Shown: positions 8,905 through 64,000 of the stretch, in pieces
Layout: each line of letters opens with the position of its first letter
Position numbering within the stretch: the first letter of the stretch is position 1
Source: Octopus vulgaris
Lineage: Eukaryota
Assembly (NCBI GenBank): GCA_951406725.2
Contig: CATOCA020000001.1
Location: 1,302,001 to 1,366,000 of the forward strand
Reading direction: 5' to 3'
Length of the DNA stretch: 64,000 nucleotides
The notes under the pieces: model-generated
Seen by the model: only the letters and a program-made list of their open reading frames with translations
Database searches by the model: none
Told to the model about the DNA's origin: nothing
Position numbers and translations under genes: made by a program

Positions 8905-8909
8905 TAGAC

Positions 8910-24619: not shown

Positions 24620-24644
24620 TGATGATGATGATGATGATGATGAC

Positions 24645-24724
<80 letters not shown>

Positions 24725-24940: not shown

Positions 24941-25185
24941 GCGAAAATGATTCATGAAAAGAGGAGAAAGAAGTTGAAAAACTTAAAAGCAGAAGAACCA
25001 GAAAATGATGAACAAGATGAATGTAGAGAAAAAGTTGTGAAGAAGACGATAAATGCAGGAAAAGAAGATATATTAAGACAAGAAAAATGACGTGGAATAT
25101 CAGAATGGGGAAACAAGTGGGAATAAAAGAATATTAATACAAATACTGTACTCACACATCAAACAAACGCAAACATATATATATA

Positions 25186-25287
<102 letters not shown>

Positions 25288-36080: not shown

Positions 36081-36095
36081 ATAAATATACATTTC

Positions 36096-36180
36096 TCTCT
36101 ATATATAAAACTGAGAATGCGTGTCTATCTGTCTGTGTGTTTCCCTAAACTTGAGAACTACACAACCAATTTCATTCAAA
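36096..36180 (+). mobile_element. Non-autonomous Helitron 5' fragment
   Basis: TCTCTATATATAAAACTGAGAATG..CCCTAAACTTGAGAACTAC matches the minus-strand end at 53340-53428. Confidence 0.6.
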
Positions 36181-37227: not shown

Positions 37228-41796
<4,569 letters not shown>

Positions 41797-41925: not shown

Positions 41926-41968
41926 TGTTATATTTCGGAATGGTCATATTGCCAGTTTAGCCAATAAA

Positions 41969-42246
<278 letters not shown>

Positions 42247-42280
42247 AAAGTTAAATGCGATACAATAAAATTAATTATAT

Positions 42281-45200
42281 ATATAAAGATCCCGTTCCTG
42301 AGAGACTTTGTTGCATGCAATCAAGCCTTATGCATGGCACTTACAGAAACGCACCTGAAACCGGACATAGCAGATGCGGAGTTACACATACCACAGTATG
42401 CTGTACTACGGACCGACAGGAAAGAAAGGAGTCATGGAGGTGTTGCTATGTACATCCGTGAGGACCTCACACCCCAGGTCCTCTTGTCATACTCAAACTC
42501 GGTGTGTGACACACTAATTGTACATATTAGGCAACTTGATGTAGTTGTGTGTGCTACATATCGCCCTCCAGATGCCCCAAGCCATGTGGGCAAGTTTGAA
42601 GACTGCCTTATAAAAATAGAAGAAATTCTAACCACATTAGAACAACACATAGGTGTGCTTCTTATGGGAGACTTCAATCTGCCCAATGTCAGATGGCCCG
42701 AGGGCCTTTCTCTCCCAGGAATGACAAGATGTGAACGAGGACAGGCGAGGTCCCTCCTGAACCTCATCAACACACTGTACATGGAGCAGGTAATACTCCA
42801 ACCAACCAGGGCAGGTAACACACTGGATCTCTGCTTCACAAATGACATGGATCTCATCCATAATGTGAAAGTGACACCGACACTACTCTCGGATCACAAC
42901 ATGATAGAGCTGACCATGTACGGGCCAAAAGAGAGCACGGACATGCAGCCTACAAGAAACCCTCAAAATCTTTCCAGCTTGAACTACCATAAGGCAAACT
43001 GGAAACAAATTGAGAAAGAGATCCTCAAACAAAACTGGCCTAAATGTCTCTCCTCGCCAGACATCGACGTGAAACTTCAACAATTCATGTCTGTAATGCA
43101 AGCCATATGCTACAAATGTGTCCCAGAGAGAAAGGCCACTGTACACAAGAACAAAATCCCCAGAGAGAGGAAAATTTTAATGAGACGGCGTACGAAATTT
43201 TCAAATCGCCTAAACAAACAGATTGAAAGCAGTGAAAAGTCCCGCCTAAAAATAAAACTGTTGGAAATCGAAAAATGTCTGCAACTCTCCCATGAAAAAG
43301 AAAGAGCAGACAAAGAAGCCTGGGCTATAGAAAACATAAAATCTAACCCCAGAGCTTTCTACAGGTATGCCAAAGAAACAGCTACAGTGCACTGTAGAAT
43401 AGGGCCACTCCTCGAAAAGGATGGCACACTTACAGGAAAACCAATGAGGGTAAGTGAAATACTGAATGAGCAATTCAAGAGTGTTTTCACTCCACCCCTT
43501 GGGCATCTCCAAATCACCAATCCAACTGACTTTTTTACCACTGCAGATATAAAATCAGAGGCGGCGACGATAGATTACATCGATATAAAGGAAGACGATG
43601 TAACCAAGGCTATAGATGAAATGAAAACAGACTCAGCTACTGGCCCCGATGGATTCCCGGCAATCCTCCTAAAAGCATGTAAGAGAGTCCTAGCAAGACC
43701 ACTGCAGTTCCTCTTTCAGAGCTTCCTTGCAGCTGGCAAACTTCCAGGAAAACTGAAGGAAGGTAAAATATGCCCCATTCATAAAGGAGGTAGCAGAGCG
43801 GAAGCCAAGAACTATAGACCTATCTCTCTGACCTCACACATCAGCAAGGTCATGGAACGAATAGTCAGAAGGAAGCTGATCACCTTCCTTGAAGAGAATG
43901 ACTTGCTGCCCGACACCCAACATGGTTTCCGACCAGGGAGAAGCTGTTTAACTCAGCTCCTACAACACTATGACTGGGTGCTGAAACGGCTGCTCAACCA
44001 CTCAAATGTGGAAGTGATATATCTCGACTTTGCAAAGGCCTTTGATAAAGTCGATCATGGAATGATATGTCACAAACTGCGTGATCTCAACATAGTTGGA
44101 AAACTGGGAGAATGGCTTCATGACTTTCTGAAGGATAGAAGTCAGGTGGTAGTAGCCAATGGGGCCACCTCCATTAACACACAAATAGTGAGCGGTGTTC
44201 CGCAGGGCACTGTTCTGGGACCACTACTGTTCATAATGGCCCTCTCAGACATGCCCTCAGCCACGCAGAGAGCCACGATCACAAGTTATGCAGATGATAC
44301 AAAAGTTTCACAGGCAATACAGAACCCTGAGGACACTAAACACCTGCAATGTGAGCTGGACGAAATATACAAGTGGGCTGAAAAGAATAGCATGCAGTTC
44401 AATGCTGGAAAGTTTCAAGCTTTATACTATCAGCATGCAAAACTGAATGCAATACCCAATGAATACACTGGACCCGGAGGGATTGCAATCCCAGAGGCAC
44501 AATCAGTGCGTGACCTGGGTATTCACATGAGTGATGACGCGACCTTTCATGTACATGTTGCTAAACTGACAATGAAATGTAGACGGCTGGCTGGCTGGAT
44601 TCTTAGAACCTTTAGAACAAGAGAACAAGAAACCATGATGGTCCTCTGGAAGACACTTGTCCTAAGCCACTTTGACTATTGCTCTCAGCTATGGTCACCA
44701 TCCAGTGTCAAGTTGATCACAGAACTTGAGGCGATCCAACGTAGCTACACAAAGAAGATAGCCTCTATGCAGAATGTAAGCTACTGGGAAAGACTCAAGA
44801 GATTAAAATTATATTCCCTGGAGCGTAGGCGGGAAAGATATGCCATAATATACATCTGGAAGATCCTGGAGGGAAGTGTCCTGAACTTTGGCATCGAGAG
44901 TTACGCAAATGCCAGAACTGGGCGCCACTGCGTGGTGCCTAGGACTCCAAACCTGCCATCAAGATGTAGGACAAGATTCTGTGATAGCCTGGGCTTCCGA
45001 GGCCCACAGCTCTTCAATATCCTCCCGAATAACCTGAGAGACCTGCATGGGGTGGATACAGATGTCTTTAAAATGAAGCTGGATCTCTTCCTGTCAGGTG
45101 TCCCAGATGAACCAACTTCACGGCAGGAGGGGCAGATGAGGGCAGCTGCATCGAACTCTCTCATGCACCAAATAGCAGTTGCTAGAAAGCCTCCATGAAG

Positions 45201-45323: not shown

Positions 45324-45364
45324 TTAGCATTAAAGACCCGTCGTTGCCGGGTCATAGTGCTAGT
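45324..45364. other. Helitron-type 3' terminus readable on both strands
   Basis: Hairpin GACCCG/CGGGTC followed by CTAG|T on + and by CTAA|T on -. Confidence 0.55.
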
Positions 45365-45447
45365 GCATGTATATATGTGTATATATGTGTACATATTACA
45401 TGTACATTTATATATATACATCTAAACATAAAATACAAAATACGAAG

Positions 45448-45810
45448 TTATATCTTGATATCGCTAGTGATAACAATACTCATAATATATAACCGACTGG
45501 AATTGTTAGCCCGTCTCTTGTAATTTCGATCAATTGTATCTTGTCCTTCCTCTTGTATAGAAGTGTGGCTATAATCCAGCCTACCTCTACTACTTGTGGG
45601 GGGAGGCATATTAAATATTTTCCGGGACGTTCTACGTCCCAGATTCAAAGGTGAAATTAAAATATTTCCACTTTGCATGTTCGAGTCGAGTACTCCCTTG
45701 CACGCTCCGTTGACTCGAATCTTGCTTCTATTGTGGCGAATTTACCACCTCTGATTAGAAACCTTTCATAGTCGCCCCAAGACACTTTCGAAGGTGCTTT
45801 CCTCCATGTT
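45448..45810 (-). pseudogene. Old Tx1-family ORF1 relic, downstream half (insertion host)
   Basis: NMEESTFESV..FLIRGGKFATIEARFESTERAREYST..GNILISPLNLGRRTSRKIFNMPP aligns to YINRGRRYGTVEVRFKTEEIAKKLST..GNIVLLPLYRGRRTSKIVMKNIPP of ORF 49746-50555. Confidence 0.8.
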
Positions 45811-46054
45811 GTTTTATTATTACCCACAAGGGGCGAACATAGATGGGACAATACAATCTGATGTGGGGTCAGACACACGAATGGGTTTTTACAATAAAAC
45901 GAATTTAAAAATTTACATGAAATTACAAAATAGACACAAAATCGAATGATGTAACAGACCGGAAGACATTACGGGTGGAGTGGGTGCGGGTTTAGCTCGG
46001 ACCCCACGAGCCCCGCCTCCCCACTGATACTTTTGGTTGCGCTTGGTATTACAT

Positions 46055-49000
46055 TTATGTTGTATCTTTCACTCGCAACTTTCGTGCTACATCTTTCCAT
46101 CGTTCTTCATACACTCTCCTAGTCAGGCATATTCTCTCCAGCCCTATCTTCCTTTTCAGGTGAAAGATGAAATAATTCATCAAACCAGGGCCGGAGATGA
46201 ACTTGCCTGACTGTAAACCTTTCATTCTCGTCTTCCATATCACCTCTTTCGCAATTGCTACTACAACGAGAAAACGAAACTTACCTTCATTCACGAGGAA
46301 ATCCGGTGGGTCAATTTTTGTAATCGACTCAGTCGACAGCTGTACTCTTCGTGTACTTGACAACAGCTGTTCGGCATAAACCCACACCTCAGACACGTCC
46401 GGACAATGAACAATAGCGTGCGAGACGGTTTCCCTATCCCGCCCGCATCTTGGACATATCGGACTGTCTTGGCCACCGTGCCTTGCGAGTTTATCCCGAA
46501 CAGGTAGAGCTCCTCTGTAGCATTGCCATGCCAGAGACTTCTGGAAGTTGTCCAGTGTCTTCGGCTTGAACGTACGTCGGAACAGACTGGCCAGCTGATT
46601 ATCGTCGAGACCTAGGGCTTCTCCCAAGGTATCTTCACATTCCGCCTCTACCAACCCTCTATAGAAGAATGTGGTGGAACACCCACCGCAGGCGTTGCCC
46701 GAGCGACGGAATAGCAGGAGAGCCTTGCGACACTCCGTGTACCAAGTACCAAGTTTCGATCTACGATTCAGCCAGGTTTCCCATCCACCGAAACTAGTGA
46801 ACTTGGGAAACATCAGTTTTGCTAGCGAAGACCACACCCGTTCACCATCCAGGTAGAGCCACAGATGTCTTAACCTCAGCGCATGTCTGCGCATCATCAG
46901 CCAAGGCATCCCTAGCCCACCCTTTAACGGTTGTTGACAGCAAGTAGAGCGCTTCACAAGTGGTTTCCCGCCCTTCCACAAGAAGTAGAAGAGCTGTCTT
47001 TCCAACTTGATCAACCACGAATCAAGGCAAGGAACGACGGAAAGGCGGTAGGTGATAACCGATGCGATAAACACATTGGCCACCTCCGCCCTCCCTTTCA
47101 GGGATAGCCACCGCCAAGACCAGGTCTTGGCTACTGCAGCCACCTTGCTCGTTACCTCGCCCCAATTCTTCTCTATTTGGAGGTCTGGACTGAACCAGAC
47201 CCCTAGCAGTTTAATAGGACCCTCCGTCCAACGTCCCACGATGCTGTCAGGAGGCATCGACTTGCCTCTCCAGGTGCCGAGTTGCAAGCCGACTGACTTT
47301 TCGCGATTAACTTTTGCACCTGTCACCGTCTCGTAAACCTCTATGGCCTTGCCTACTTTACATAGGTGGTCCATTTCGGTTACGATAATGGTGATGTCAT
47401 CCGCGTACGCTGACACTGATTTTCCATTACCTGGCTGTCTCGGGATGCCGCTCAGTTTTCGCAGTAATGGCTCAAGAGCCATCACGTACAAAAGCGGGGA
47501 GAGCGGACACCCTTGACGAACCGAGCGTTTGATTTTGAACGGCTTCGACAAGAAGCCGTTCACCCGAACTACCGAGTCGATGTTATCATAAATTTGGATA
47601 ATCCACCTGAGGAAGCCAAGGCTCAGCCCGAACTGTGCCAGGGCAGATACCAGGTAATGATGGTCGACCCTATCAAAAGCTTTAGATTGGTCTAAATGGA
47701 CCAGTGCCCCACCCTTGCCAGAATCACTATTAAACCCCTCTATAGTGTACCGCATTAGATGGAGATTATCCTGAATGGATCTGCCCGGAACGGCACATGT
47801 CTGTGCCTCTCCGATCAGACCATCCGCGACACGCGCCAATCTTTTCGATAACACTTTGGCCAAAATCTTCAACTCTGTGTTTAGCAGAGTGATGGGCCTG
47901 AAATTATCAATGCACTCCCCCTTGCTCGGGTCCTTTCTGACGAGAGTCACTACTCCCCGGCGCACAAATCTGGGTATAAGCCCGTTCTGCTGCCAGTTCG
48001 CATAGACCTCCGCCAGTAGGTGCCCGAACAAGTCTGGCATACTCTTATATAACTCATAGGGTAGACCATCCAAACCCGGCGCCTTGCCCGCGCCGCAGTC
48101 CGCCATTGCCTCAACCACCTCCTCAGGCGTGATTGGCCCTTCACAGCCCTCCGCATCTCGCCCCGATAAGCGCGGCAGCCCGTCAAGTAGGTCCGTAAAG
48201 GCCCTCCTCCTATCCAGTCCGCCGCACTCACCGAAAAGCTGAGCGAAGTGCTCCTGAAAGGCCTCACACATCTCCTCGGGTTCGTTTATCAACTCACCTT
48301 GTTGGTTCGTCAAAGATCGAATCGTGGCATCGTTACCATGCTGAGCTTCCACCACTCGGGCCCATCTCACGGCGTTGATTCCTTCACATCCCATATGGCG
48401 GATTCTAGCCCTGACAATGCAGCCCATGTGTTTGGCCTCGAGGTGCTGGTTTAACACCAGTCTCTTGGACGCCACCTGAGCCGCAGAGCCAGTTTTCATG
48501 GCTTCCTCTAATTCCTTAACTAGAGTAGTTTCCCTTCTAGCCTCTCTAGCCACTACTCCTATGCTATATCTAATAGACTCAAACTTGATGGCTCGTTTGA
48601 GGGCGTACCACCATTTGTTATTAATGATGGTACTAGATAGTGCCCTCTGAATTATATTCCTAATCCGGTCTTTGTACTCCTTAATCGCCAAAAGGGACGT
48701 ATTAAGTTTCCAGTAACCGGATCCTCTATTTTTAACCTTATCTATGTCAAGCTTACAAGTGACCATTTTATGATCACTGTAGCTGATCGGGTAAAACTGT
48801 GGACACTTAGCTATTTTACTGTCTACTTTTCTAATTAGTATTCTATCTAAATATGACCTGGAAGATCCGTCGCTGTTTGACCATGTCCACAATGGAGCGT
48901 TCGGAAATTCCAGCCTATAAGGATCTGCTAGCTCAAAGCGGCTTAGCAGTTCCATGAAGCCACTGTTACCTTTTCTATCTGGACGCGAGCCAACACAATC

Positions 49001-49450
49001 TACATCCGCTTTGCAAATTGTGTTAAAGTCTCCTAGCACCACTAATGAATGCGAAGTACCAAGAAAGTTTTCTAGTTCACGAAAATAATCACTTTGCCCT
49101 GTATGGTTGGGTGCGTAAATTGCAACCAGTCTGATAACTTTACCATTACTGAACGTCAAATCCATGATGACCAGCCTACCTTCTGGATCTGCAAAAATTA
49201 ACTTTTTCTCAGAAACCCGGTTTCTTTTTAATAGGACCAACACCCCACTCCCGCCTGTAGGACTGCCAGGAGAGACAAAACTCTCGTAGCCGTCAAACAG
49301 CGAGAGTAGACCTCTTGGCCCCTCTAACCGGGTTTCTGTAGCAACAATAACATCTAAATTACGCGACCTGATATCATGCAGGAAGCGACCTTGCTTCCAG
49401 CCTGCTCCCAGGCCGCGCACATTCAAACAACCAACATAAATGTAATCCAT
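46055..49450 (-). CDS. Tx1-like ORF2, intact 1131 aa (APE EN + RT + C-terminal CCHC)
   Basis: LNVRGL, TET, IYAPN, GDFN, SYLDR, SDH, YWKLN, KAPGLDGLP, FRPITLLN, DQSKAFD, RQGCPLSP, YADD, CPRC..ETVSH...C. Confidence 0.97.
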   Translation of the reverse strand: MDYIYVGCLNVRGLGAGWKQGRFLHDIRSRNLDVIVATETRLEGPRGLLSLFDGYESFVSPGSPTGGSGVLVLLKRNRVSEKKLIFADPEGRLVIMDLTFSNGKVIRLVAIYAPNHTGQSDYFRELENFLGTSHSLVVLGDFNTICKADVDCVGSRPDRKGNSGFMELLSRFELADPYRLEFPNAPLWTWSNSDGSSRSYLDRILIRKVDSKIAKCPQFYPISYSDHKMVTCKLDIDKVKNRGSGYWKLNTSLLAIKEYKDRIRNIIQRALSSTIINNKWWYALKRAIKFESIRYSIGVVAREARRETTLVKELEEAMKTGSAAQVASKRLVLNQHLEAKHMGCIVRARIRHMGCEGINAVRWARVVEAQHGNDATIRSLTNQQGELINEPEEMCEAFQEHFAQLFGECGGLDRRRAFTDLLDGLPRLSGRDAEGCEGPITPEEVVEAMADCGAGKAPGLDGLPYELYKSMPDLFGHLLAEVYANWQQNGLIPRFVRRGVVTLVRKDPSKGECIDNFRPITLLNTELKILAKVLSKRLARVADGLIGEAQTCAVPGRSIQDNLHLMRYTIEGFNSDSGKGGALVHLDQSKAFDRVDHHYLVSALAQFGLSLGFLRWIIQIYDNIDSVVRVNGFLSKPFKIKRSVRQGCPLSPLLYVMALEPLLRKLSGIPRQPGNGKSVSAYADDITIIVTEMDHLCKVGKAIEVYETVTGAKVNREKSVGLQLGTWRGKSMPPDSIVGRWTEGPIKLLGVWFSPDLQIEKNWGEVTSKVAAVAKTWSWRWLSLKGRAEVANVFIASVITYRLSVVPCLDSWLIKLERQLFYFLWKGGKPLVKRSTCCQQPLKGGLGMPWLMMRRHALRLRHLWLYLDGERVWSSLAKLMFPKFTSFGGWETWLNRRSKLGTWYTECRKALLLFRRSGNACGGCSTTFFYRGLVEAECEDTLGEALGLDDNQLASLFRRTFKPKTLDNFQKSLAWQCYRGALPVRDKLARHGGQDSPICPRCGRDRETVSHAIVHCPDVSEVWVYAEQLLSSTRRVQLSTESITKIDPPDFLVNEGKFRFLVVVAIAKEVIWKTRMKGLQSGKFISGPGLMNYFIFHLKRKIGLERICLTRRVYEERWKDVARKLRVKDTT

Positions 49451-49459
49451 TACTTACCC

Positions 49460-50810
49460 CTATATCAGTGGTTCGACTTGTTCGACTTGTTTTTCGTCGT
49501 CTTCACTTTTATTTTTTTCCTTGGCTCGTGGGGGAGTCCGACGCAGGCCCTCGTATAGATATGGAGACATGTCCAATCTCAGAGGGCCCACGTCGTGGAA
49601 GAATTCGGATTTTATCCGTCTGTAATCCTTCCGGCCTATTTTATAAACAATGCAGTCTTTTGTTTTTCTCACTCTTTCCACTTTTGCCATGGCTGCCAAA
49701 ACATTAACTAGTCTGTTATTGGTGGCCTTAATGGCCATAAATGAATTAGTTGCTTCCTTTCTCTTCTTCTGGTTCTCTTCCTGAGGGGTGGTTTCTGTTT
49801 TCCGTTTTTTTTTTGGTAACTTTTGACCACCCCTCCTCTTTTTCCTTTTCTACGCCACTTGTTGTTTCTACTACCTCTTTGGTTTCATGTGTTTTTTCTT
49901 CTGTTTTCTTTTCTGTTTTTTCCTTTTCCGGCGGTGCTTCTACCTGCGGTTTAGGTTGGCACTCTGCTCTTACGTGCCCCTTTTTACCGCAGCCGAAGCA
50001 CCTCGGCTTTCTTCCCTCCACGAACACTAGCACCCTCTCCTCCTCGCTGAGCCTCAATATCTCCGGTATTTCTTCTAGTGTTTGGACTTCGGCTTGGATC
50101 GCCATTGTGATGCATTGTCCTTGCCAAAATCCTTCCTCCTCTACTGTAGCCTGGAGGATAGTGATCTTGTCCTCCAGGCCTAGCATCACTGCCGCCACCA
50201 GGCATGTGGCGTCCGCTTCTGGCGGAATATTTTTCATTACTATTTTTGAGGTCCTTCTGCCTCTGTACAGGGGTAGAAGGACTATATTCCCTACTTTTTG
50301 AGGTTCGGTTGATAGCTTCTTTGCTATCTCCTCGGTCTTAAACCTCACCTCAACTGTTCCATACCTTCTGCCTCGGTTTATGTACGTTATATCTTTTCTT
50401 ATTGCCTTCAGACAATCCTCTATTTTTTTTTCCTCCACTTTTTGGATGCTTTTCGTCGTTATATTGTAGGTCTTGTAGATAATCCTTTTTCTTTCTATTT
50501 CTTCTTTCTTTCCGACGTCTGCTTCCACTGCTATTTCATTTCCTTCCTTTTTCAAAAGTACTTCATACTTTTCTAGGTTGCTCCTATCTGTGTTGATCCT
50601 TTTTTGTTTTCGACCTGCGACTTCCGCGAACTACTTCGCTGGGGCCTTTTCTGTTTCTGGCGTCACCGCCGGTTCTTTTTCCGGCGTCACCGCCGGTGAA
50701 CTTTCTTCACCTGAAGTTGGTGAACTTTCTTCACCTGAAATCGGTGAATATGAGATAGGAGTCTCCATCTCAAGCCTTTTCAATTGGCTTTCACAGCCTT
50801 CAAAAGACAT
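49460..50810 (-). pseudogene. Tx1-like ORF1 (gag-like, zinc knuckle) with one TAG and one +1 frameshift
   Basis: ATG at 50810 is in frame with ORF 49746-50555; TAG at 50631-50633 (K*FAEV); CFGCGKKGHVRAEC. Removing one A from the A10 run (49805-49814) joins it to ORF 49460-49738. Confidence 0.85.
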
Positions 50811-51087
50811 TTTGGCTTTGCAAGCCTTTTGTGTAGATTTTTAAATGTGTTCCACACAAAATGTCCCACAATTAATTCCCCCGCAGGGGGGGAACTAAAT
50901 ACGCAGCCTTCGCGCGAAGGCCACTGACAGTCTTATACAAAAGACACAATATATCAAAGCAACAGTAATTAAATCAACGAATCGGTATTAACAAAGTAGC
51001 AGCAAATGACAAACCAGACAGGCACTCGAATAAGTATTCCGTTGGTGACAATCTCAAAAATTGATTTCCTCCACCTGTTCAAATCTT

Positions 51088-52748
51088 GATTCTTTATTAC
51101 CCACAAGGGGCCAACGAAGAGGGGGACATTACAAGACATGGGGACATGGAACATCACAATTACATATATATGAGCAAAATGGAATATGAAAAATGATATA
51201 TGAGAGTGATACCGACGGCCCCATCCGCCAGCATCACTTATCTGTCCTTCTTCACCCATTTCCAATTAGTATTCCTGTTTTATCTATCACAACCTTCGTT
51301 TTTCTTTTAGCCCTCTCTATCCATTCCTCTTTCATTTCCACTGACTTCCAACACACACCCTCTTCCTCCAACCTTGTCGCCAATATACCCGTATCATCAC
51401 TATCCACAGCCGTGTAGCTCCAATCTTCGTGTTCGTACCACTTGGTTAACACCAGTTTTTTAACGTTTTGTATATCTTTCCCATGTATAACACATAAAAA
51501 ATGGGTCTTGGGACTTTCTTTGCTCTGTGTGTCTGTTTTTATTTTTCTTGTAGGCGGGGAGTGGGTGGAATTACTGTTTGCAGGGGAAGGATGGGACTCA
51601 AGGGTATGGGTGGTGTCGGGGTGGGTTGGGGCTTCGCACAGTTTTTCTTTTTCCTTCTTTTTCTCTTTGTTCCCCCTTCTTTCCACTCTTGTTGCATCTC
51701 CTCTTCTTCTGTCGTTTCCTTCTCTGTTTGTTTCTGTTTATTTTCTTCCTCTCCTGAGGCTTCCTCAACGCTTTCCTTTTCTTTTTTCCTTTGGTGGGGG
51801 AGGGCAGTAGGCTCTTATGTGACCCCTTTGGCCACACTTGTAGCACCTGGGCGCCCTACCCTCCACCCACACTCTCATAATAATATTTCCAGTTTTTATG
51901 CTGTCCGTAATCCTCTCTATAACATCCGCCTCCGTTTGAATGTTCATAACTAGTGTGGCACCTCTCACGCCTTCATACTTCATAATGGCGTGGAGGATGT
52001 CCACTTTATCTTCATTTCCTTTTATAACCGCAGCCGTTATTATTTCGCCCTCTAGGTGTGGAGGTATTCCCTCCACCCTAATTCTGGTTGTCCGCCTATT
52101 CAGATACGAGGGTAACAAGTAAAACTTTTCTGTACTCACCACCTTGGCTGCTACATTCCTGGCTGCTTTTTCACTTTTAAATTGCACCGTTACGGTTCCG
52201 TATTGTAATCCTTTTGTCATGTACACAATTTCCTCTCCTGTCTGCTTGAGAGCCTCTTCAATTGCTTCCATGTTAATTACTTCCATCTTTCTACCTCCAT
52301 TCATAAATACTTTATATTTAATGGTTCTACGATGGAACCAGTCTCCGCACCCTACTGGATGCAGCAGCTCAACTTCACCGTTCTCGTCCTCCTTCACAAA
52401 CTCCTGGAGGCCCGCCAACTTCGCCAGGTCTATCTCTCTTTCCGTTGACTTCTTCGTTACACCTGCGTAGGTGCCTTCCATCTTTTTCACCACCAACTCC
52501 TCCTCAGATGTCGATACTTCCGTCGAAATTTCAGAGTAAATTCTCCCTTCCATCTCCTCCGCTTGATGGAGGCGGCTCATAGTCGCCTCCGGCCGAAAAA
52601 CGGCCTCCCGAACCGAAAAAGTGTAACGCGCAGAACCAGTGAGACTCGAAACCGCATCAACTATGTTCAAAATTTTACAACAACAACCATTCACCTTTTG
52701 TTCTTTTTTCTTTTTACCGAATTTCACAGAGAGCAAAAAAACACGACC
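51088..52748 (-). mobile_element. ORF1-only non-autonomous Tx1-like element (element B)
   Basis: ORF1 homologue (TYAGV, YGTVTVQF, EGRAPRCYKCGQRGHIRAYC) with a frameshifted tail to 51252, then a ~165-nt UTR ending CCCCTTGTGGGTAATAAAG; no ORF2. Flanked by AAGATTGAAC and AAGATTTGAAC. Confidence 0.85.
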
Positions 52749-52900
52749 GTTCAATCTTCTTTTTCTCTACATTGTATACTTTATAGACAATAGTCTTATC
52801 TTTAATTTAATTTTCTGTTATCCATTTGGACTATTCCATTTCTGCACGCTAATTTTATTTTTATTTTATTCCCATTCATGTGAAACCACTTATTCAAGTT
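52749..52900 (-). pseudogene. Old Tx1-family ORF1 relic, upstream half (insertion host)
   Basis: 52800 to 52750 reads DKTIVYKVYNVEKKKIE, compared with RKRIIYKTYNITTKSIQ (A) and RRTIKYKVFMNGGRKME (B). Confidence 0.7.
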
Positions 52901-52919
52901 CAAGTCATTGATGCAATTT

Positions 52920-53428
52920 TATACCAATTGCTATTCTTATTTTTGTTATGTTACTTTAGTTTGATTTTCATTATTACTTACAACATATGATTCAATTGTT
53001 ATTATTATTTTTATTGTTAAAGTGAAAGTATCTGATATAAAATAGAGAAACGTTTTTGTTTCACTTTTAACACGTAATACTGAAATTGTGGAGAAGATAT
53101 GATATTGCTATGGGCTCGCTCTAGGCAAGAAGTTGAACATTTTCTTGCCCATGAAACTACGTGGACCCTAAGTAAGGCATGTGTAAAATTTGAAAGGAAT
53201 TGGTTGTGTAGTTCTCAAGTTTTAGGGAATCGTAGTGGAGAAGATATGATATTGCTATGGGCTCGCTCTAGGCAAGAAGTTGAACAATGTTTTTGCCGAT
53301 GACACTCCCCGGACCCTAAGTAAGACATGTGTAAAATTTGAATGAAATTGGTTACGTAGTTCTCAAGTTTTAGGGAAACGCACAGACAGACAGAGAGACA
53401 CACATTGTCAGTTTTATATATATAAAGA
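52920..53428 (-). mobile_element. Non-autonomous Helitron 5' part with internal ~147-bp tandem duplication
   Basis: Minus-strand A|TCTTTATATATATAAAACTGACAATGTGTG start; repeat units begin at 53088 and 53235. Confidence 0.65.
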
Positions 53429-53699: not shown

Positions 53700-56600
53700 A
53701 CAAAATGAAGGAGAAGCATTACACCTTCAAGATTCAAGGTCAGTGTTATCACCGCATGGGAAGTCTTTACCCTCAGCCTACCAAGGAACCCAAGTTCTTT
53801 CAGATTTTCTTCATGGGTTGTTCAAACGCAGAAGGTATCCAACGGTGCAACAGAAATTCAGATGCTGACGCAGCAATTGTTGCTGAACTCCAACATATGC
53901 TTCATGCAACACACCCTCATGTCAACGAATTGAAGAATGCGTTGCAGCTTTTGGAAGCCCAACCTGAGCTAAAATTGATAATTAAAGCTGACAGGCGATC
54001 TGCTGGTGAGCACCCGCGACGTTTCAAGGCTCCAACCACCAACAAGGTTACAGCAATCATAGTCGGCGAAGAAAATGGCAAGAAAAGGGCTTTCAACAGG
54101 GTTACATGTACTGGTATTTACGGCTACCCAATTTACTGACGACGTGCCCCTGACTTTGGAGAAATTTCGGCGAAAAAAAAGGATAAAGGGCAAAGACATT
54201 GCCATCAACAACAGTATGGTTGTTCCCTACAGTCCTTTCTCCCTTAAAAACTTCAACACCCACATCAACGTTGAATCTTGTACCTCGATTAAAGGCATCA
54301 AGTACATATCCAAACATGTAAACAAGGGCAGCGACATGGCTGTTTTGGGTGAGCAGGATGAAGACACAGCCAACGATGAAATCCTTCAATACGTTATGGG
54401 CAGGTATATTTCGTGCAATATGGCGGCATGGCGCAATCTAGGTTTTGATATTCACCATTCCTCTGCAGCTGTTTTTGGCCTAGATGTACACTTAGAAAAT
54501 AGGCAACGTGTTTACTTCACTGAGGACACCGCCGCAAATGTACTCAAACAGCCACCGGAAACAACGCTTACAGGATTCTTTAAGTCGTGTACTTCCGATT
54601 CTTTGCGCAAACTCTACTTTATGACGATGTACCGTCCTACATCACTTGGACTAACAAAAAATGTCAAAGGCGGCGGCAGGGCGTGCGAATCGACAATGAG
54701 GTCGGTTAGGTAATCTACAAAGGAAACATGATCGGTCGTGTACACATTCTACACCCAAAGGATCAGGAGTGCTTTTTTGTGGATGATTCTGTTTCATATG
54801 AAAGGCCCAACATCATTTGCCCACGTCAGACCATTCGAAGGACAAATGTGTTGCACTTACAGGGAAGCTTGCTTGCGACGGGGACTACTCGAGGATGAGG
54901 GTCTCTGGAACACGGCATTGCAAGAGGCCTCTGAATGCAAGACACCAGAAGTAATGCGCCGAATATTTTGTCTCATCTATTCAGTAATGTGTCTAACCCT
55001 CTTCATTTCTGGGACACATTTAAAGATAGATTTTTCCGAAGACCATCTCCGACGACCTCAAGCCGAAGATCCAACGGCTGGATTCGACTTCAATAATGTC
55101 ACCTACAACACAGCACTCCTCGATTTGCAATCGCAACTGTAAGTTATGGGAGGAGTTGGCGTCCTCAGATTTCAGTCTGCCGTCTCCGCGGGACATTCCA
55201 AATGCTTTAGCTGCTGAGTATATGCGAGAGTTGAGCTACAACACGCAGGAAATGGTGGCGCAGGTTACTCAGGATGAGCCTAGACTTTTGGAAGTACAGA
55301 GAATTGAATACGATAGGTTCCTCACCAGTGGTAATTCCAACGAAGGACAACTTTATTTCTTGGATGCTCCCGGCAGAACCGCCAAAATTCTCCAGGAAAA
55401 TGGGATTGCCATAGCGGTTGCATCCAACGGCATCGCAGAAACTCTACTGCAAGGCGGTCGTACGGCACACTCTGCATTCAAATTACCACTAGACTTGACG
55501 AAACAGAGAAATCCAACTTGCAATGTTAGTCGTGGCTCAGCCATGGGGAATCTTCTCACTGAGTGCAGCCTTATCATTTGGGATGAGGCAGCCATTTGTC
55601 ATAAGGCAGCATTCGAGGCGCTCGAGCGGTTTCTTCAAGACCTGAGACGCAATATGAGAGTGATGGGTGGAGTGATTGTTCTGCTTGCTGGCAACTTCCG
55701 ACAAACTCTACCTGTCATTCCACGGGGGACACGAGCTGACGAGGTAAATGCTTCCAAAAAATCATCCTAGTTATGGCACCACAGAGAGAAAATTCGCCTG
55801 ACTACGAACATGAGAGTTCACGTGTTTGGCGACGAACATGCGGCCACATTCTCGGCGCAGCTTCTCAATGTTAGTAATGGAACTGTAGCTGGCGATACTG
55901 ATAGTTTCATCCATTTACCATTTGGTAACTTCGTGCCTAACGTAGATGATTTGATTTCTCCAGTTTTTCCTGACATTGCAAGCCAAAGCCTTCACACAAT
56001 TTGCCTACAAGGAATAGCAATGTTGGCGCCTCACAATAAAACAGTCGACGCTTTCAATAATAAACTTTTTGATCTGCTTCCTGGAGAAAAACTCTCCTTC
56101 AAGTCCCTTGACACGCATGAAAACCCGGAGGATATGACCGTTTTCACAACAGAATTTCTTAATTCCCAAACGCCCCCAGGACTTCCGCCTCACGAACTCC
56201 ATCTCAAGGATGTCGCGCCCATCATGCTGCTGCGGAATTTGGATGCTCCAATGTGTAACGGCACCCGGATGAGAATAAAAAATATATACTCCCGAGTTCT
56301 GCAGGAAACAATCTTGAATGGACCAGCCAATGTTCACGATGTTCTTATAACCCCAATGTCCCTCACTCCCTCCGATACGATCTACAAATTTAAGCGGCTG
56401 CAATTTCCTATCAAACTCTCCTTTGCAATGACATTAATCCCTATTTTTGTAAGCAGTTGTATCCATAAAAGTTTTCTTTGCAGAGAGCAGAAAGTGAAAG
56501 ATATGTGAAATGGACATGTGTGTGTGTGTGTGTGTGTGCGTACTTACGGATGTGTATGTGAGAGAGAAAAAGGGTGAGAAAGAGAGATAGTGTGAGTGAG

Positions 56601-57001
56601 TGAAGGCACAGGGTCAATCATTGCAAATGGTTGGTTTAAATCTCACAGAGCAAGTGTTCTCCCACGGTCAACTCTTCCTTGGATGCTCCCATGTTGGCAG
56701 CACACAAAGTCTAGACATTTGTACATCAGAAGGGAAAACGAGAAATGTGGCCTACAAGGAAGCGCTCCTCTGAAAAGATGGCATTTCTTCACATCTTTCA
56801 AATCACCCCAGGCATGTGCCGCCTCAAGAGCTTCGTAGTCGCCGTGCCAGCCAATGTAACTCAATGACACACACCTTTACTCACTCACACTATCTCTCTT
56901 TCTCACCCTCTTTCTCTCTCACATAGAAATGCCCAAGTATGCACACACACACACACATGTGCATTTCACATATCTTTCACTTTCTTCTCTCTGCAAAGAA
57001 A
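53700..57001 (+). mobile_element. Decayed Helitron Rep/helicase, copy 2 (duplicate of 14250-18310 lacking ~14511-15407)
   Basis: FKIQGQCYHRMGSL..PKFFQIFF; the same ORF fragments and frameshifts as copy 1 (e.g. 55096-55770 = 16394-17068). Confidence 0.93.
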
Positions 57002-57096
57002 ATTTCTTTGCAGATGTTTCTCATCAGTTGATATTTCAAAAAGCACCTCGCCCAATGAACTCGGTTCCACTCGGTTCGATTATAACGTATTTCGTT

Positions 57097-57153
<57 letters not shown>

Positions 57154-57156
<3 letters not shown>

Positions 57157-60100
57157 GGAGGAGGGGGAGAACACCGGGGACGTTTAACATGTGGGAACGA
57201 TAAAACCTCGTTCCGAAATCTATCCACAAACATCGAAAACAAAGACATCATATGGAGCCAAAAATTAACTGACAAAGGATTGGACTATATCCGAATAAGT
57301 AATGCTCATTGAAATTTATTACTATTTTCCAAACGAAATAATGTATTTTTACTCGATATCATCTCCACCTCTAACACAACACATGTAAACATGCTCGATA
57401 CATTACGATCCATCAACACCAGATCATCTCCGGCCCCAAACACCATGTACAAAAAAACTACAAAGAAATTTAATAACACCGATATTATTCAACCCAAGAA
57501 TAACAATCGGGAAGTACGTACTTTAAACTTACAACATAAAGTGTACGAAAAACTACGCGTGCAAAACAATGTGACAAGAGAAATGAACGGACAGGTACCC
57601 TACGAAAATGACGACCGTCAAAATAATGGGCCGGACGTTGTTCCTCAAGTCCCGCAAGTAAAACCCAAAAGACATAAATGGACATGTGAGGGATACATTT
57701 CTATCCTACACGCTTACTTTACAGCAGTGCTCTACCCAAAGAATGAAAACACAACACATACTTATAAAATATGGAAGGAAAATAACATAAATATAGACTT
57801 GGATACAGCAATGAACCCTAATAAATTAGCTAACGTACGAAGATATATTCTCAATACAAAAAAAATATCAGAAATAGAAATAGAACATTTAAAAGAAAAA
57901 ATGCATCAGGGAAATGTAGATAGAAGCCACACAACAATGCCCAATAATATAAACACTAAAACAGTAAAACACGAAGACAAACGTAACATTTCCAACAAAA
58001 ATGATGTAAACAAAAAAAAAACAACAAACCCAGACCGTAAGGATGCATAATAATACACGACAAACAGCAAGCCAAAACACAACAGACAAACATACGAAAG
58101 TGAAAAAAAGCGACACAAATCTAAAACCTGTAAACAACAAAGAGGAGCCTAATGATTATGATACTATAAAATTAGAATAATCAAAGAACTGAAAACCACA
58201 GATCTCAAAATGGACCACCGACCATACCTCCCAAAAGTCAAAATAGACAAAACAACAACATCAATTATAAACAGCATATACCTAGCCATCACATAACTAA
58301 TAGCCACTGAAACAAATAGCGATATCACTGAGCTAAATGACTTAGTATATGCAGCAGCCACTGCAGCCACAAAAGAAGCTGGATACTCACTCAAACCCAT
58401 CCAAACAGAAGTAACACCACCCAAACAAACCCTGTGGATAAATAACATCCAAAAGAAAATACAAAAAATAGAAAAGATCTGTCGATTCTTAACGAAATCA
58501 GTAGACAATCAACGCTACTAAGCAACAAAAAGAAAACAAAAATATTGTGCAAATACAACATCACAGAAAAAGATTTACCTGAGATAAAAGAAAAACTAAG
58601 GCAAGATATCCTTGCGAAAGCACAAAGGATCCGCCGGTAAGAGAAACGCCAACGTTTCTTTGAACAAAACTAACAGTTCAACTCCAACCCGAAAAAGTTC
58701 TACCAAGAACTTGGCAAGAATAAAATAGACATCACTGCAGCACCAACGGCAGAAGAAGTGGAAGAATTCTGGAAAGGAATATGGTCGGCGAATGAACAAC
58801 CAAAAAAAAGGTGTATTAAAACAACAAACATAGCATCTGAGAAACTTTGGACCCCCATAACAAGTGAAGAGGTCAGCCAGGCACTGCAGAGACTAAGCAA
58901 CTGGAAGGCACCTGGGCATGACAAGATCCCCAACTTCTGGTTGAAATATCTACCAGGAATACACAAAACGCTGGCTGAAAGCTTTAACAACATACTGGCA
59001 GAGCCAGAGACAATGCTTGAATTGCTCACGAAGGGGAAAACCATCTTAATTCCCAAATGCAATGGGACAGCAAAACCAGAAAACTACAGACCTATAACCT
59101 CTCTCCCTACAATGTACAAAGCATTTACTGCAGTAATATCACAAGGATTAAACAAGCACCTGGACGAAAACAACCTGTTCCCAGAAGAGGAGAAGGAATG
59201 TCTCAAAGGCGTTTGATAGCATCCCCCACACATGGATCCTCAAAACACTAGCCATTAACAAAGTAGCACCAACAATTATAAAATTCATAGGACACTCTAT
59301 GTATAAATGGCAAACAGTGCTACAGCTCCAAACAAAAGAGGGACTCATGAAAACCAAAGCCATCCCCATTAGAAGAAAAATATTCCAGGGAGACACGCTC
59401 TCTCCACTCCTTTTCTGGTTAGCACTGTCACCTCTATCTGATATGCTAAATATACCTGGATGCGGATATAAATGCTACGGCAAAACGATCAGCCACCTTT
59501 TATATATGGATGACCTAAAACTATGCCCTGCAAATGACAAACAGCTGGAAAAACTATGAAAGACAGTTCATGGATTTACCAAAGAAATAGATATGAAATT
59601 TGGATTAGAGAAATGCGCCAAAGTAACCATGAAAAGAGGAAAACTAGTTAAGAGTAGCAACATCACACTAGATGAAGCAAATGAAATAAAAGAATTAGAC
59701 AAAACCAAACTTACAAATACTTAGGAATCCATGAACTAGATAAGACACAACACACACAAATGAAAGAGAAAATAAAAAAAGAATATTATAGACGAGATAG
59801 ATCAATACTAAAAACAGAGCTTAATGCTAAAAACAAGATAATAGGTATTAACACTTTAGCCGTTCCAGTAATAATTTACAGCTACAACATCCTTAACTGG
59901 ACACTAAATGAACTGACCAAAATAGATAGGAAAACAAGAAAAATAATGTCAGGATCTAGGATGTATCACCCAAACTCTGACACACAAAGACTATGTATAC
60001 AACGTATAGAAGGTGGTAGAGGCCTTATACAGCTGGAAAACTACTATAAAATAAATACAATAGGACTGCAAAAATATCTACTTCAGAAGGAAGGAAAACT

Positions 60101-61258
60101 GATACAAATAGCGGCAAAACACGAGCAAAACAAAAAACTGTTCTCAGTATTTAAGGATGTTGACAAATACAAACAAGAAATCATACCACCTAACAAATAT
60201 GAAAAAGAAGAAGAAGGAGAGGAAGAAGAAGAAGAAGAAGAAGAAGAAGAAGAAGAAGAAGAAGAAGAAGAAGAAGAAGAAGAAGAAGAAGAAGAAGAAG
60301 AAGAAGAAGATGAAGAAACAACAAAAGGTATAAAACAAATGAAATCCAAACTAAAACTAGAACAGCAAAGAACCATGATAGGCGATGGAAAGAAAAGCCC
60401 CTTCATGGTAAATACTGCACTAAACTAAACGCAAAAGAAATAGACAAAGAAAAATCCCAGCAATGGTTGAGAAGCTCAGGACTCAAAGCAGAGACAGAGG
60501 GAATTTTAATTGCAGCACAAGAGCAAACCTCCCACCACCACCACCAGAAATTACCAAAGACATGTAATGAAAAGAAATATAACAAGTAACTGCACAATAT
60601 GTGGAGATGGACAAGAAACTATAAATCATATTATCTCTGGCTGCCCAGTCCTGGCTATGAAGGAATATATTCACAGACACGACAGTGTTGGGACCTACAT
60701 ACACTGGAAGCTATGCCAACATTATGGAATAACAACAGAAAAAAGATGGTATAAGCACACGCCAGAAAAGATGACAGAAGACGAGAAAGCAACCATACTC
60801 TGGGATATGCCGATACACACAGATAGAGAAATTAAAGCCAACAGACCAGATATAGTTGTCAGAGATCATGAAGAAAAAAAAAAACTTTCTAATTGATGTA
60901 TCAATACCAGCAGATGACAACGTGAATCTAAAAGAAATGGAGAAACTTTCAAAATACAAAACCTGGGAATAGAGGTAACTAGAATGTGGAATCTAAAAAC
61001 AGAAACAATTCCTATCATAGTAGTTGCATTAGGCATGATAAAAAAATATTCAGACAAATACGTAACAAAAACACCAGGACTTACAAACACATATAACATA
61101 CAGAAAATTGCACTACTAGGCACTGCACACATCCTACGCAGAACACTTTCCATACAATAACCATCAGAGCATCACAACAAATCACAGCACATACCCAAGG
61201 CACACAGAGCTGCGCTCGGTAGTGAAGTGAAAGCACGCTATAAAAAATAAAACTACTG
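57154..61258 (+). mobile_element. R4/Dong-clade non-LTR retrotransposon (RT + restriction-like endonuclease), decayed
   Basis: RHKWT..NKLANVRRYI; NWKAPGHD, YRPITSL, IFQGDTLSPL, HLLYMDDLK; CTICG..ETINHIISGC, RHDSV, NRPDIV, IDVSIP, KY; (AAT)n on both sides; internal RT deletion near 59215. Confidence 0.93.
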
Positions 61259-61259
61259 A

Positions 61260-61345
<86 letters not shown>

Positions 61346-62730
61346 TATAATAATAATTATAATTATAATTATAATTATAATAATAATAATAATAATAATT
61401 TTAGAACGAAGAAGATGAAGAAGAAGAAAAACAAGAAGAAGAAGGAAAATAATAATAATAATAATAAGAAGAAGAAGAAGAAAACGACAACAACAACAAC
61501 AACAATAACATCGAAGAAGTCGATGATGAAGAAAAAGTAATATAAGTAGCAAGAAAACAGAAAAGTTGGACAAGCAAAACAATAACAAGAAAATTTGGGA
61601 ATGAGGATAGAAATGATAATAAAAATATATCAACATAAGTAAAATTATCAGACATACACACAGACACAAACGTACGAGGGACACAGCAGACGTTGTTTTA
61701 TGTTGTGGACGACTAGTTACATTAACATCCTTCCTAAAGGAATTGAAACGGTATATACAGCCATCACACTGGACAGGTTGACCAAATTGCCCCAGCTGTA
61801 GCTCACTGTACAAATAGAAAATGACGACTACCAACTTCAGCACGTCATGTAATTGTAGAGTTTAAAATAAATCATATTATTGAATCAGTATCTCAAAAGA
61901 GTGAGGATGAATATATTTCTATACGTTCTTTTCTTGAAGTGAGTATAACTCTGCATAAATATATATTTCATAATATACCCACCTATAGACACAAATGCAA
62001 ACATAGATATTCACGTGCAATCGTACACTCATACACACAATGTTAGACATTAATGCAGGCACATAGAGACACAAACAATCATAGACACCTTCATACACAC
62101 TGTAGCATGAAGATAGTAGCAGAACATTAGTTAGAGATAGAGAGAGAAAAAGGAAGATGAGAAGACATTAAGTTTCTAGAAAAAATTAATAAATAAAATA
62201 ATATCAAAAAACTTAACCAACTTACAAGAGGCTTAAACTTGGAAGATCTTGAAAGGATCCTTGTAGGATTGTTGTGATCATATTCCCATCTAGATGTCTG
62301 AAAAATAAAACACAGTTCAAAAGAAAGAGTGTTAAAAAGATTTCTTATAAAATATTAAATCTTGTATCTTTAGAATGATATTAATAAAAAGAGGATGGTG
62401 AAGGAGAAAATGGCCGCGATGAAGTTGTTGATGATATGGAGGATGAGGATTGCGATGTTGATTGTACATGTAATAATGACGGTGAGAAGGAAAAATGATG
62501 ATGATTATTATCGAAAACGATGACAAACGCTACCGATTAATTGGTGATGAAGACGTTGATTATTATGACGTTCATAACGAAGGTGATGATGATTCTGCAT
62601 GCTAGAAATAGCAGAGTAAATGAGGGAAGGAAATAGTTATGATGACATGATAAATCATAACGATTAGTGAATATGAAAATATGATTAGCAGAAGGACAAT
62701 CATGGCGTTGAAGATTATAATGATGATGAC

Positions 62731-62762
<32 letters not shown>

Positions 62763-63295
62763 CGACGACGACGACGATGAGGATGATGATGACGATGATG
62801 ATGGTGACGATCGTGACGATGATGATGATGAAAGATGTGATGAAAAATTAGAAACTAATAAGAATAACGAAGAAGGTGAAGGAAAATAAATCATAGGACG
62901 GATAAATATAGAGAAGAAGAAGAAGAAGAAGAAGAAGAAGAAGAAGAAGAAGAAGAAGAAGAAGAAGAAGAAGAAGAAGAAGAAGAAGAAGAAGAAGAAG
63001 AAGAAGAAGAAGAAGAAGAAGAAGAAGAAGAAGAAGAAGAAGAAGAAGAAGCGAAAATGATTCATGAAAAGAGGAGAAATCAGTTGAAAAAATTAAAAGC
63101 AGAAGAACCAGAAAATGATGAACAAGATGAATGTAGAGAAAAAGTTGTGAAGAAGACGATAAATGCAGGAAAAGAAGATATATTAAGACAAGAAAAATGA
63201 CGTGGAATATCAGAATGGGGAAACAAGTGGGAATAAAAGAATATTAATACAAATACTGTACTCACACATCAAACAAACGCAAACATATATATATA

Positions 63296-63363
<68 letters not shown>

Positions 63364-63372
63364 TATATATAT

Positions 63373-64000
63373 ACACCAACCTTTCCATCCCCTATTCCCA
63401 ATTCCTCCGTCGACGTAGGCTCTGTAGTGACGACCATGACATTGAGACTCAGTCTCAACTCATGGCTCGCCACTTCATCCTACGTGGATACCCCCTCATC
63501 ACTATCCACACCGCCCTTGCCAGAGCACGTTCCGTAGACCGTGCATGTGCTCTCTCCCCCCGAACCCGCCCTGAAATCTCCCTCCTCCCTTTCCCCTCAC
63601 TTACCACCCCACCAGCCTACCTCTCCAACGCACCATTCTTCGAGCTTCCCGGCATCTCCAGTCCGACCCGTCCACTTCACACCACTTTCCAAACCGACCC
63701 CTCCCCTCCTTCAAACGAGCGCATAACCTACGAGTTCTCTTGGCCCACAGCTTTTTTCCAGACCCTCCCTCCCAACCTGGCTCGTTCCCCTGCTCCTGCC
63801 TACGCTGCTGCACTTGTCCTTACCTCTCCAACACCACCCTCTTCACCGGTACCCATCATCGACCCTATCGCATCATCGACTCCTTCATCTGCACCTCCAG
63901 CAATATCATCTATTGCATCTCCTGCTCTCTCTGCCATTCCCTGTACATCGGACAAACGGGACGCCCCTTGGTTGACCGGTTCGTGGAACACCTCCGAGAC
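63373..64000 (+). mobile_element. Penelope-like element 3' coding region (RT thumb, Zn linker, GIY-YIG), running off the window
   Basis: SIPYSQFLRRRRLCS, RGYP, LTYHP, FKRAHNL, PCSCLRCCTC, CTSSNIIYCISCSLC..LYIGQTGRPL..RF.EH. Confidence 0.9.

Follow-up and report, generated by a model that had tools for sequence, protein, structure and literature searches.

The 64,000-nt stretch of Octopus vulgaris DNA analysed here (the window) carries, in head-to-tail order on its minus strand, element B, a target-like spacer and element A, all lodged within one decayed ORF1 (Table 1). An earlier note had described an old ORF1 broken by B and then by A, and the translations and motifs that it quoted were found where it placed them; we corrected the start of B to 52748. 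Within the window, tblastn matched the 5′ half of the old ORF1 (52806-52749) to residues 105-124 of A ORF1 and the 3′ half to residues 143-222 (E 0.002). Joining 52749 to 45809 gave a single open frame, KKIE-HMEESTF, which matched A ORF1 with an E value of 7.6e-10. The B-spacer-A anatomy inside the decayed ORF1 is real. Mis-assembly could have fused unrelated repeat copies into such a stack, and no listed contig in the four sequencing runs spanned the whole stretch. We consider this highly improbable: the spacer is unique sequence and a copy of neither flank, the two parts of the host, once joined, are in frame with each other and agree with empty sites in 3/4 runs, and similar tail-to-head joints occur in independent runs.

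Table 1. Features of the nested locus, in minus-strand order (positions are those of the window)
Feature	Position	Strand	Remarks
Helitron host, 5′ part	52749..53428	-	A|TC start at 53428; CTGT run 53393-53382
Captured ORF1 piece, 5′ half (IKDKTIVYKVYNVEKKKIE)	52749..52806	-	weak homology reaches ~52827
Putative target site, upstream half (AAGATTGAAC), retained at 5′ junction	52749..52758	-	
Element B, ORF1-only (HAL1-like)	51088..52748	-	
Spacer, ~54 nt	51034..51087	-	first 41 nt a diverged target-site paralogue, then 13 nt
Element A, Tx1/L1-type LINE	45810..51033	-	head motif, ORF1, ORF2, 3′ UTR, tail
Captured ORF1 piece, 3′ half (HMEESTFESV..RGGKFATIEARF..ITRD)	45480..45809	-	three frame changes; a third ORF1 lineage
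Helitron host, 3′ end	45324..45479	-	AT/CA microsatellite, hairpin, CTAA then T

The earlier note had overlooked the host of the old ORF1, which carries three frameshifts and makes up ~430 nt of a non-autonomous Helitron 1.17 kb long. The 5′ part of this host contains a 146-bp tandem duplication (53088-53232 and 53235-53380) and an AT-rich stretch, followed by the captured first half of ORF1; its 3′ end forms a 19-nt hairpin (45353-45335, 6-bp stem) and closes with CTAA (45327-45324) followed by T. With its A|TC start, 3′ hairpin, CTAA|T end and absence of a TSD, it has the hallmarks described for Helitrons, namely 5′ TC, 3′ CTRR, a 16-20 nt hairpin and insertion between A and T without TSD (PMC4038834). 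A similar Helitron 5′ end is found elsewhere in the window (~36082-36180, plus strand), and the ORF1 piece is presumably joined to Helitron ends in other copies too, the depth data covering the interior only.

The ORF1 piece is 53% identical to P0097 and 34% to A ORF1, and in a quick tree built on 126 columns from 85 of the 158 sequences it grouped with P0061, P0092, P0097 and P0118 (SH-aLRT 98), separately from the clade of A (97) and from B. The interrupted ORF1 thus belongs to a third lineage, neither A's nor B's. Protein searches with the piece found nothing (24 candidates; 2 candidates). We rejected its being a live gene or a gene of the inserted elements' own family, since it has three frameshifts, is Helitron-borne and falls in a third lineage. 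The own-family target proposed in the earlier note is accordingly dropped, and so is the idea of disabling competitors, which finds no support at a locus where the ORF1 was already non-coding and rode in a high-copy Helitron.

Element A opens with a head motif (51033-51024), followed by ORF1 (50810-49460), which has one frameshift and a stop at 50633 that is not present in other copies. Its ORF2 (49450-46055) is intact and encodes 1,131 aa with APE endonuclease, RT and zinc-binding domains (Pfam PF03372, E 3e-13; PF00078, E 1e-31; PF13966, E 6e-9); the top PDB match was human L1 ORF2p (E 1e-64). A CCHC knuckle, CX2CX4HX4C, is visible in the ORF1s of both A and B, for which Pfam zf-CCHC gave, respectively, no match and an E value of 0.001, just below the curated cut-off. 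The ORF2 domains and the ORF1 knuckle mark A as a Tx1/L1-type LINE, its placement in the Tx1 or the L1 clade being putative; 80 L1-Tx1 families, 13 of them recently active, are reported for O. vulgaris (PMC13282606). A is young, its ORF2 differing between contigs at 2/310, 2/396 and 6/682 nt. By alignment its endonuclease loop has the length of human L1's, which we do not take as a predictor of specificity. A more distant relative in the window (9271-11640; ORF2 43-46% identical) ends beside a (TA)n run and not at the target site.

Element B consists of an ORF1 (52580-51252), with one frameshift near 51782 that is absent from most other copies, and a 165-nt 3′ UTR; tblastn of A ORF2 found no ORF2 remnant within 51088-52748. 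About 120 nt of the 3′ end are common to B and A. Because its ORF1 is only 35% identical to that of A, B comes from another lineage despite the shared tail. The TSD-like flanks of B reported in the earlier note are both present, as copies of 10 and 11 nt, but they differ by one T and a TSD is not required: the right-hand copy may be imported, and its three-T form, as in the spacer, occurs in 9/10 listed empty-site rows.

The spacer between B and A (51087-51034) includes the 41-nt diverged paralogue of the site that had been noted there, and is longer than this since the head motif of A begins at 51033. The 41-nt part, which translates as FEQVEE.., agrees with the rebuilt empty site at 31/41 columns, and the match runs exactly over the junction; its score was equalled by 0/2000 shuffles and 0/117 other window segments. 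When the 30 nt past the possible TSD were placed anywhere, 136/2000 shuffles and 7/117 segments scored as well, which is not significant; the position-specific match of the same 30 nt was reached by 21 of 63,892 window 30-mers, which is. Two origins of the spacer were rejected. Since A is young and its contigs are nearly identical (~1% diverged), the spacer, at 70% similarity to the local flank, is too different to be a TSD made here by A. Nor is 51047-51087 a constant piece of the A 5′ UTR, a reading that the earlier note had itself raised against its proposal, as other A-type heads lack the spacer (joint 51023 to 45812).

At the homologous site there are two independent 3′ junctions, separated by 11 nt, the tail of B on the spacer paralogue and the tail of A on the host, and both readable 3′ junctions (2/2, n=2) are at the target site. 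With the copy range assumed from depth, a 30-nt window in 2,000-20,000 target copies would make up 2e-5 to 2e-4 of the genome, whose size is taken as 2.7 Gb, a value near the 2.8 Gb that PMC13282606 implies. It is nevertheless conceivable, if unlikely, that there is no fixed target: the endonuclease would only loosely favour purine-rich DNA, reverse-transcriptase template jumping or read-through would produce the stacks, and the spacer match would be a rare coincidence. ORF1 DNA is indeed highly purine-rich, the target sequence is very abundant, the window's distant relative lies off the site, R2 proteins yield longer and head-to-tail products via template jumping (PMC11371274), and the spacer beyond the possible TSD, taken by itself, loses significance without the position constraint. 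Against this, the full spacer match spans the exact junction and was never equalled by shuffling, its independent part passes the position-specific comparison, and long GAA runs in the window are purine-rich sites left unused here.

Sequencing runs (n=4, X1, X3 and X9 among them) provided further views of the site through summed contig depth, which is not copy number. In X1, host bins reached 523k and 353k and the captured ORF1 519k at 52798 and, at listed places in its 3′ half, 75k to 1.06M, as against 1.1-1.8k for the A ORF1 5′ bins and 55-80 for long single contigs; B bins gave 9k-24k, knuckle bin excluded. By this measure the captured ORF1 is far commoner than the ORF1 of A or B, and B is multicopy with a tail common to an autonomous partner, as expected of a HAL1-like element. 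Empty sites were detected: 3 of the 15 listed joints (of 623) bypass the entire insert, and such sites are present in 3/4 runs. None of the same 15 joints led from the B tail to the host 3′ half, a weak negative because the X1 empty-site joints sum to ~0.8k depth against ~500k beside them. Depth in X1 was 346k in the tail (45834) and 44k in the A UTR just upstream (45863), which implies many tail-bearing elements with flanks beyond the two junctions read.

The head-to-tail arrays predicted in the earlier note were borne out in that further tail-to-head joints exist elsewhere. In X3 (depth 286 of ~502 at that point) and X9 (25.8 of 50-74), joints without spacer lead into an A-type head, and in X1 (depth 130) into a B head; A-type and B heads open with a motif matching in 8/11 letters. 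A single contig stands behind each joint, which may go back to one event that was amplified afterwards. Tail-to-head joints would also be expected from template jumping alone.

Taken together, the two 3′ junctions 11 nt apart and the tail-to-head joints elsewhere make a site preference of some kind, whether for the Helitron fragment or for sister LINEs, quite probable. What survives of the fixed ORF1 target first proposed is an ORF1-derived site bearing two independent 3′ junctions. Our preferred reading, to which we give a probability of roughly 0.55 on sequence grounds, is that A and B insert preferentially at one Helitron-captured ORF1 site, the enzyme of A mobilising B. An ORF1 fragment would have been captured by a non-autonomous Helitron, whose probable multiplication of it into thousands of copies would offer A and B a harmless, renewable landing pad. 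The A endonuclease may nick at, or within ~11 nt of, AAGATTTGAAC|ACATGG and prime reverse transcription there, starting from the common tail; B, which has that tail too, is likely mobilised by A's enzyme. The upstream half-site would outlive insertion, so that newcomers land just ahead of earlier copies and build stacks. Being too diverged for a duplication made here, the spacer was most likely acquired at a donor locus in which B had earlier settled in a paralogous target, and B-spacer-A would have moved into the present Helitron copy as one long RNA or by a template jump.

The same site could instead mark cross-targeting of sister LINEs, in which A and B hit P0097-type ORF1s, full-length copies included, and inactivate them, Helitron copies being hit for carrying the site. 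The site is ORF1-derived, the spacer resembles the P0097-type lineage (FEQVEE; P0092 has LEQFEEST) and could stem from a real LINE copy, and A's own ORF1 likewise has the core TGGAGGAAA at its homologous position (50437-50429). We nonetheless find this reading doubtful. The sole interrupted copy observed is a dead Helitron-borne piece, and the ORF1s of A, B, P0001 and P0002 are unbroken at the homologous position. In two weak tests, protein starts among the ORF1 homologues did not clearly pile up at the site (aa 120-129 bin, 12; the bins on either side, 8 each), and a tail or head translation fused to an ORF1 piece was found in 0/155 proteins. A more speculative history, which we would not favour, is that the LINE pair evolved to cut a rival LINE's ORF1 and that the Helitron then captured the site and scattered thousands of decoys. 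If so, one transposon would have built a niche, or decoy sink, for a second from a piece of a third, and ORF1-only and full elements would travel as pre-assembled stacks.

Transposon-homing Tx1-type LINEs are already known, and the general behaviour is not new. Tx1 families are described whose targets are piggyBac, Mariner, Harbinger and LTR elements, a family being called target-specific when one repeat type makes up >20% of its flanks, and for SINEU-3 there are reports of insertions in tandem around a TSD (PMC4494074). The octopus case would operate like Tx1L in Tx1D of Xenopus laevis, crocodilian Tx1-Mar with SINEU-3, and Tx1-9_AMi in Harbinger (PMC4494074, PMC1950540, PMC6719617), as described there: an L1/Tx1-group APE-type LINE occupies a fixed site of a DNA transposon that is non-autonomous and abundant, it has a non-autonomous partner, and insertions in tandem occur there. 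Unlike in those systems, the host is a Helitron, the site is the captured ORF1 of a sister LINE lineage, and specificity is read here from sequence alone; unlike SINEU-3, partner B is ORF1-only and not a SINE. B resembles HAL1 (half-L1), a non-autonomous LINE derivative encoding ORF1 alone (PMC5753468), but occurs in a mollusc rather than a mammal and combines an ORF1 of another lineage with A's tail.

Other nested or acquired arrangements are likewise only partly similar. Zepp of Coccomyxa/Chlorella also forms clustered nested LINE copies, but Zepp nests in Zepp, in one 1.5-42 kb cluster per chromosome (PMC3446292), whereas the octopus stack has two members and sits in a dead fragment of a third lineage, carried by a Helitron that is dispersed; Zepp-type insertion into own-family copies is not what we found. 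R1 arrays in Drosophila 28S rDNA are head-to-tail, new copies entering target left at earlier 5′ junctions, but the R1 copies are split by a 14-bp TSD (PMC2718515), whereas at the octopus joints the copies are parted by 54 nt of foreign spacer or have no target sequence between them. Compared by description, Lep1-type non-autonomous Helitrons share the 5′ TC, 3′ CTRR, hairpin, A/T insertion and acquired internal sequence of the host (PMC4038834), whose acquired part differs in being a LINE ORF1 and seemingly a LINE target.

Searches outside the octopus returned 0 loci for the target and tail motifs in viral, metagenome and prokaryote collections, 60 candidates but 0 confirmed for A ORF2 in metagenomes, and 19 candidates but 0 confirmed for P0097 in viral contigs. 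The accessible part of the O. vulgaris repeat annotation that lists L1-Tx1 families (PMC13282606) held no mention of target sites or nesting, and no Tx1 family in a Helitron-borne ORF1 was found in the literature searched, outside which lie Repbase reports and most subscription papers. New here are a HAL1-like partner and, in all likelihood, a target of LINE origin that has been multiplied by a Helitron. If confirmed, the targeting would extend the known systems to a cephalopod family, to a Helitron as host and to a target that itself comes from a LINE, and would give a multicopy, harmless target of a site-specific LINE a traceable origin. With an intact 1,131-aa ORF2 and a defined ~25-nt site, A offers a candidate sequence-specific APE endonuclease that is directly testable.

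Deleting 52748-45810 in silico restored an uninterrupted ORF1 frame (KKIE-HMEESTF) that matched the ORF1 of element A with an E value of 7.6e-10. Together with empty sites in three of four sequencing runs, this confirmed the proposal of the earlier note that an ORF1 had been interrupted by elements B and A. Joints skipping the entire insert were 3 of the 15 listed among 623, coming from runs X1, X3 and X9, with none listed for X11. Empty sites made up 10 of the 12 between-letter rows listed (102 further rows lay beyond these), and 9 of these 10 carried three T's, as does the spacer between B and A, differing from the left flank in the window. Mis-assembly of the region is very improbable.

Main features of the interrupted locus
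Feature	Position	Strand	Remarks
Helitron host (putative)	53428 to 45324	minus	1,166 nt without insert; holds captured ORF1 piece
Element B	52748-51088	minus	one ORF1, CCHC knuckle
B ORF1	52580-51252	minus	frameshift near 51782
Element A	51033-45810	minus	putative Tx1-like LINE, by domain layout
A ORF1	50810-49460	minus	one stop and one frameshift

The host opens with A|TC at 53428, includes a CTGT run together with a 146-bp duplication, and closes with a 19-nt hairpin followed by CTAA|T at 45324. PMC4038834 names such features as characteristic of Helitrons, and the host is accordingly identified from its ends as a Helitron. In X1, summed contig depth, which does not equal copy number and covers the host interior (the Helitron ends lie outside the compared stretch), reached 523k and 353k in two host bins, against 1.1-1.8k over the 5′ ORF1 of A and 9-24k over most of B; over ORF2 it was 82-257k at 80% likeness, and 55-80 in long single contigs. 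This several hundred-fold contrast makes thousands of host copies likely. At 52858, X9 and X11 contigs departed from the host into other sequence; this probably belongs to a sister subfamily of Helitrons lacking the ORF1 piece, and the point of departure would mark the capture boundary. Elsewhere in the window, 36082-36180 (+) holds a lone ~100-nt 5′ end from the Helitron family of the host. A Helitron helicase region with PIF1 matches occurs twice (14250-18312 and 53819-57005, 97.5% identical across 2,929 nt), the second copy ~400 nt from the host 5′ end, with further common blocks at 23677-25263 and 57003-63373 (86-90%). A Tc1/mariner transposase ORF (19226-20245, 339 aa) is flanked by ~250-nt inverted repeats at 18892-20558.

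With 449 representatives at E ≤0.001, the ORF1 family is a large one; among 10 members checked, six were named records, all Octopus. Two O. bimaculoides proteins could be gene models across interrupted or stacked copies: the ORF1 match of P0056 breaks off at the target position (residue 122) and, judged by eye, seems to resume ~90 residues on, and P0007 has two ORF1-like segments. With an X placed at each of its three frame changes, the captured piece shared 53% identity with P0097, 44% with P0061, 42% with P0092 and 34% with A; B was not in the best 12 of its 93 matches. In a quick tree on 126 columns, built from the 85 of 158 sequences with a coverage of 80 residues or more, the piece clustered with P0061, P0092, P0097 and P0118 (SH-aLRT 98), outside the A clade (97) and B. 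By these comparisons the captured piece belongs to neither A's nor B's own lineage. The original self-targeting idea is partly supported: a LINE-derived site bearing two 3′ junctions stands, and the own-family target is not supported. That A and B instead hit live sister LINEs is unlikely.

By its domain layout, A is most likely a Tx1-like LINE: its intact ORF2 (1,131 aa) contains APE endonuclease, RT and zinc-binding domains in a domain search, and the nearest solved structure is human L1 ORF2p. All 8 matches to A ORF1 came from Octopus, among them an O. sinensis protein at 87% identity and an O. vulgaris protein at 86%. A is young, as ORF2 contigs differ at 2/310, 2/396 and 6/682 nt. The stop at 50633 in A was missing from all contig depth in 4/4 runs and the extra base behind the B frameshift from 66-100%, so both are private to the window copies. 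A translated search with A ORF2 within the window found no ORF2 remnant in B (HAL1 elements are defined in PMC5753468). The two ORF1s are 35% identical, and the final ~120 nt of A and B are alike, the B 3′ UTR being 165 nt. At 45811-45863, the last ~40 nt of the tail had ~8x the depth of the adjacent upstream UTR (346k vs 44k, X1), and further families or SINEs probably carry this tail. Other LINEs with APE and RT lie at 37369-40499, 41968-45198 and about 58850-59660 (all +), 24-32% identical to A.

The spacer proved, as first suggested, to resemble a diverged paralogue of the target site: its first 41 nt matched the empty site in 31 columns, spanning the junction, a score reached by 0/2000 shuffles and 0/117 window segments. 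The 30 nt past the possible TSD scored 24, which 136/2000 shuffles and 7/117 segments reached with any position allowed; against the exact downstream flank, 21 of 63,892 window 30-mers reached the score, 5 of them from the same locus on the opposite strand. A-type heads directly followed the family tail, without spacer, in X3 (depth 286 of about 502) and X9 (25.8 of 50-74), in one contig each and in none listed from X1 or X11, ruling out the spacer as a constant part of the A 5′ UTR. A B head directly followed the tail in X1 (depth 130). Duplication by A at this locus was also rejected, since 70% likeness is too low for an element ~1% diverged; the spacer therefore appears imported from elsewhere. 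A-type and B heads at these joints open with a motif alike at 8/11 letters and resembling an initiator element, found in worn form at 51033-51024.

Just two reverse-transcription priming events were readable, the B tail on the spacer paralogue and the A tail on the host, and their 3′ junctions, both at the homologous position, are separated by 11 nt. The 24 rows of loose contig ends listed (5,192 further rows lay beyond these) included none at the element termini. Assuming 2,000-20,000 targets in 2.7 Gb, the chance of a given junction falling there is about 2e-5 to 2e-4, from which we infer a preferred nick site. The nick would be guided by an upstream half-site that survives insertion, and later copies would land ahead of earlier ones, giving the tail-to-head joints seen, much as R1 copies stack in their 5′ TSD (PMC2718515). 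Template jumping, demonstrated for R2 proteins (PMC11371274), yields the same joints with no fixed target, an explanation we consider improbable. Counting against targeting, a decayed, 5′-truncated A relative at 9271-11640 (-), with 43-46% ORF2 identity and a loosely similar tail, ends beside a (TA)n run away from the ORF1 site. The high tail depth also implies many tail-bearing elements, whose flanks may differ. The B flanks, described earlier as TSD-like, are indeed nearly alike and differ by one T, most simply a private change in this old host copy, in which B-spacer-A would have arrived as a single unit. Sequential insertion, of A with a 5′ extension and then B with an 11-bp TSD, may also apply, and would imply targeting as well. 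Overall, we give a probability of roughly 0.55 to a site-preferring Tx1-like LINE and its ORF1-only partner using a Helitron-borne, LINE-derived target.

Viral, metagenome and prokaryote collections yielded no octopus loci with these sequences, and the papers listed in literature searches, with Repbase outside their scope, gave no account of a LINE pair in a Helitron-borne ORF1 target. L1-Tx1 and Helitron families have been counted in O. vulgaris (PMC13282606), the main text and one supplement of which lack the terms 'nested' and 'target site'. According to the papers cited, Zepp forms nested clusters (PMC3446292), the Tx1L endonuclease is site-specific in vitro (PMC1950540), and Tx1 targets include piggyBac, Mariner, Harbinger and LTR elements, snRNA genes and microsatellites, with tandem insertions of SINEU-3 and 20% of flanks as the targeting criterion (PMC4494074); landing in other transposons is a known harm-limiting strategy (PMC6719617). 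Targeting of other transposons by Tx1 is thus already known, and the variant suggested here is a Helitron-borne, LINE-derived target.
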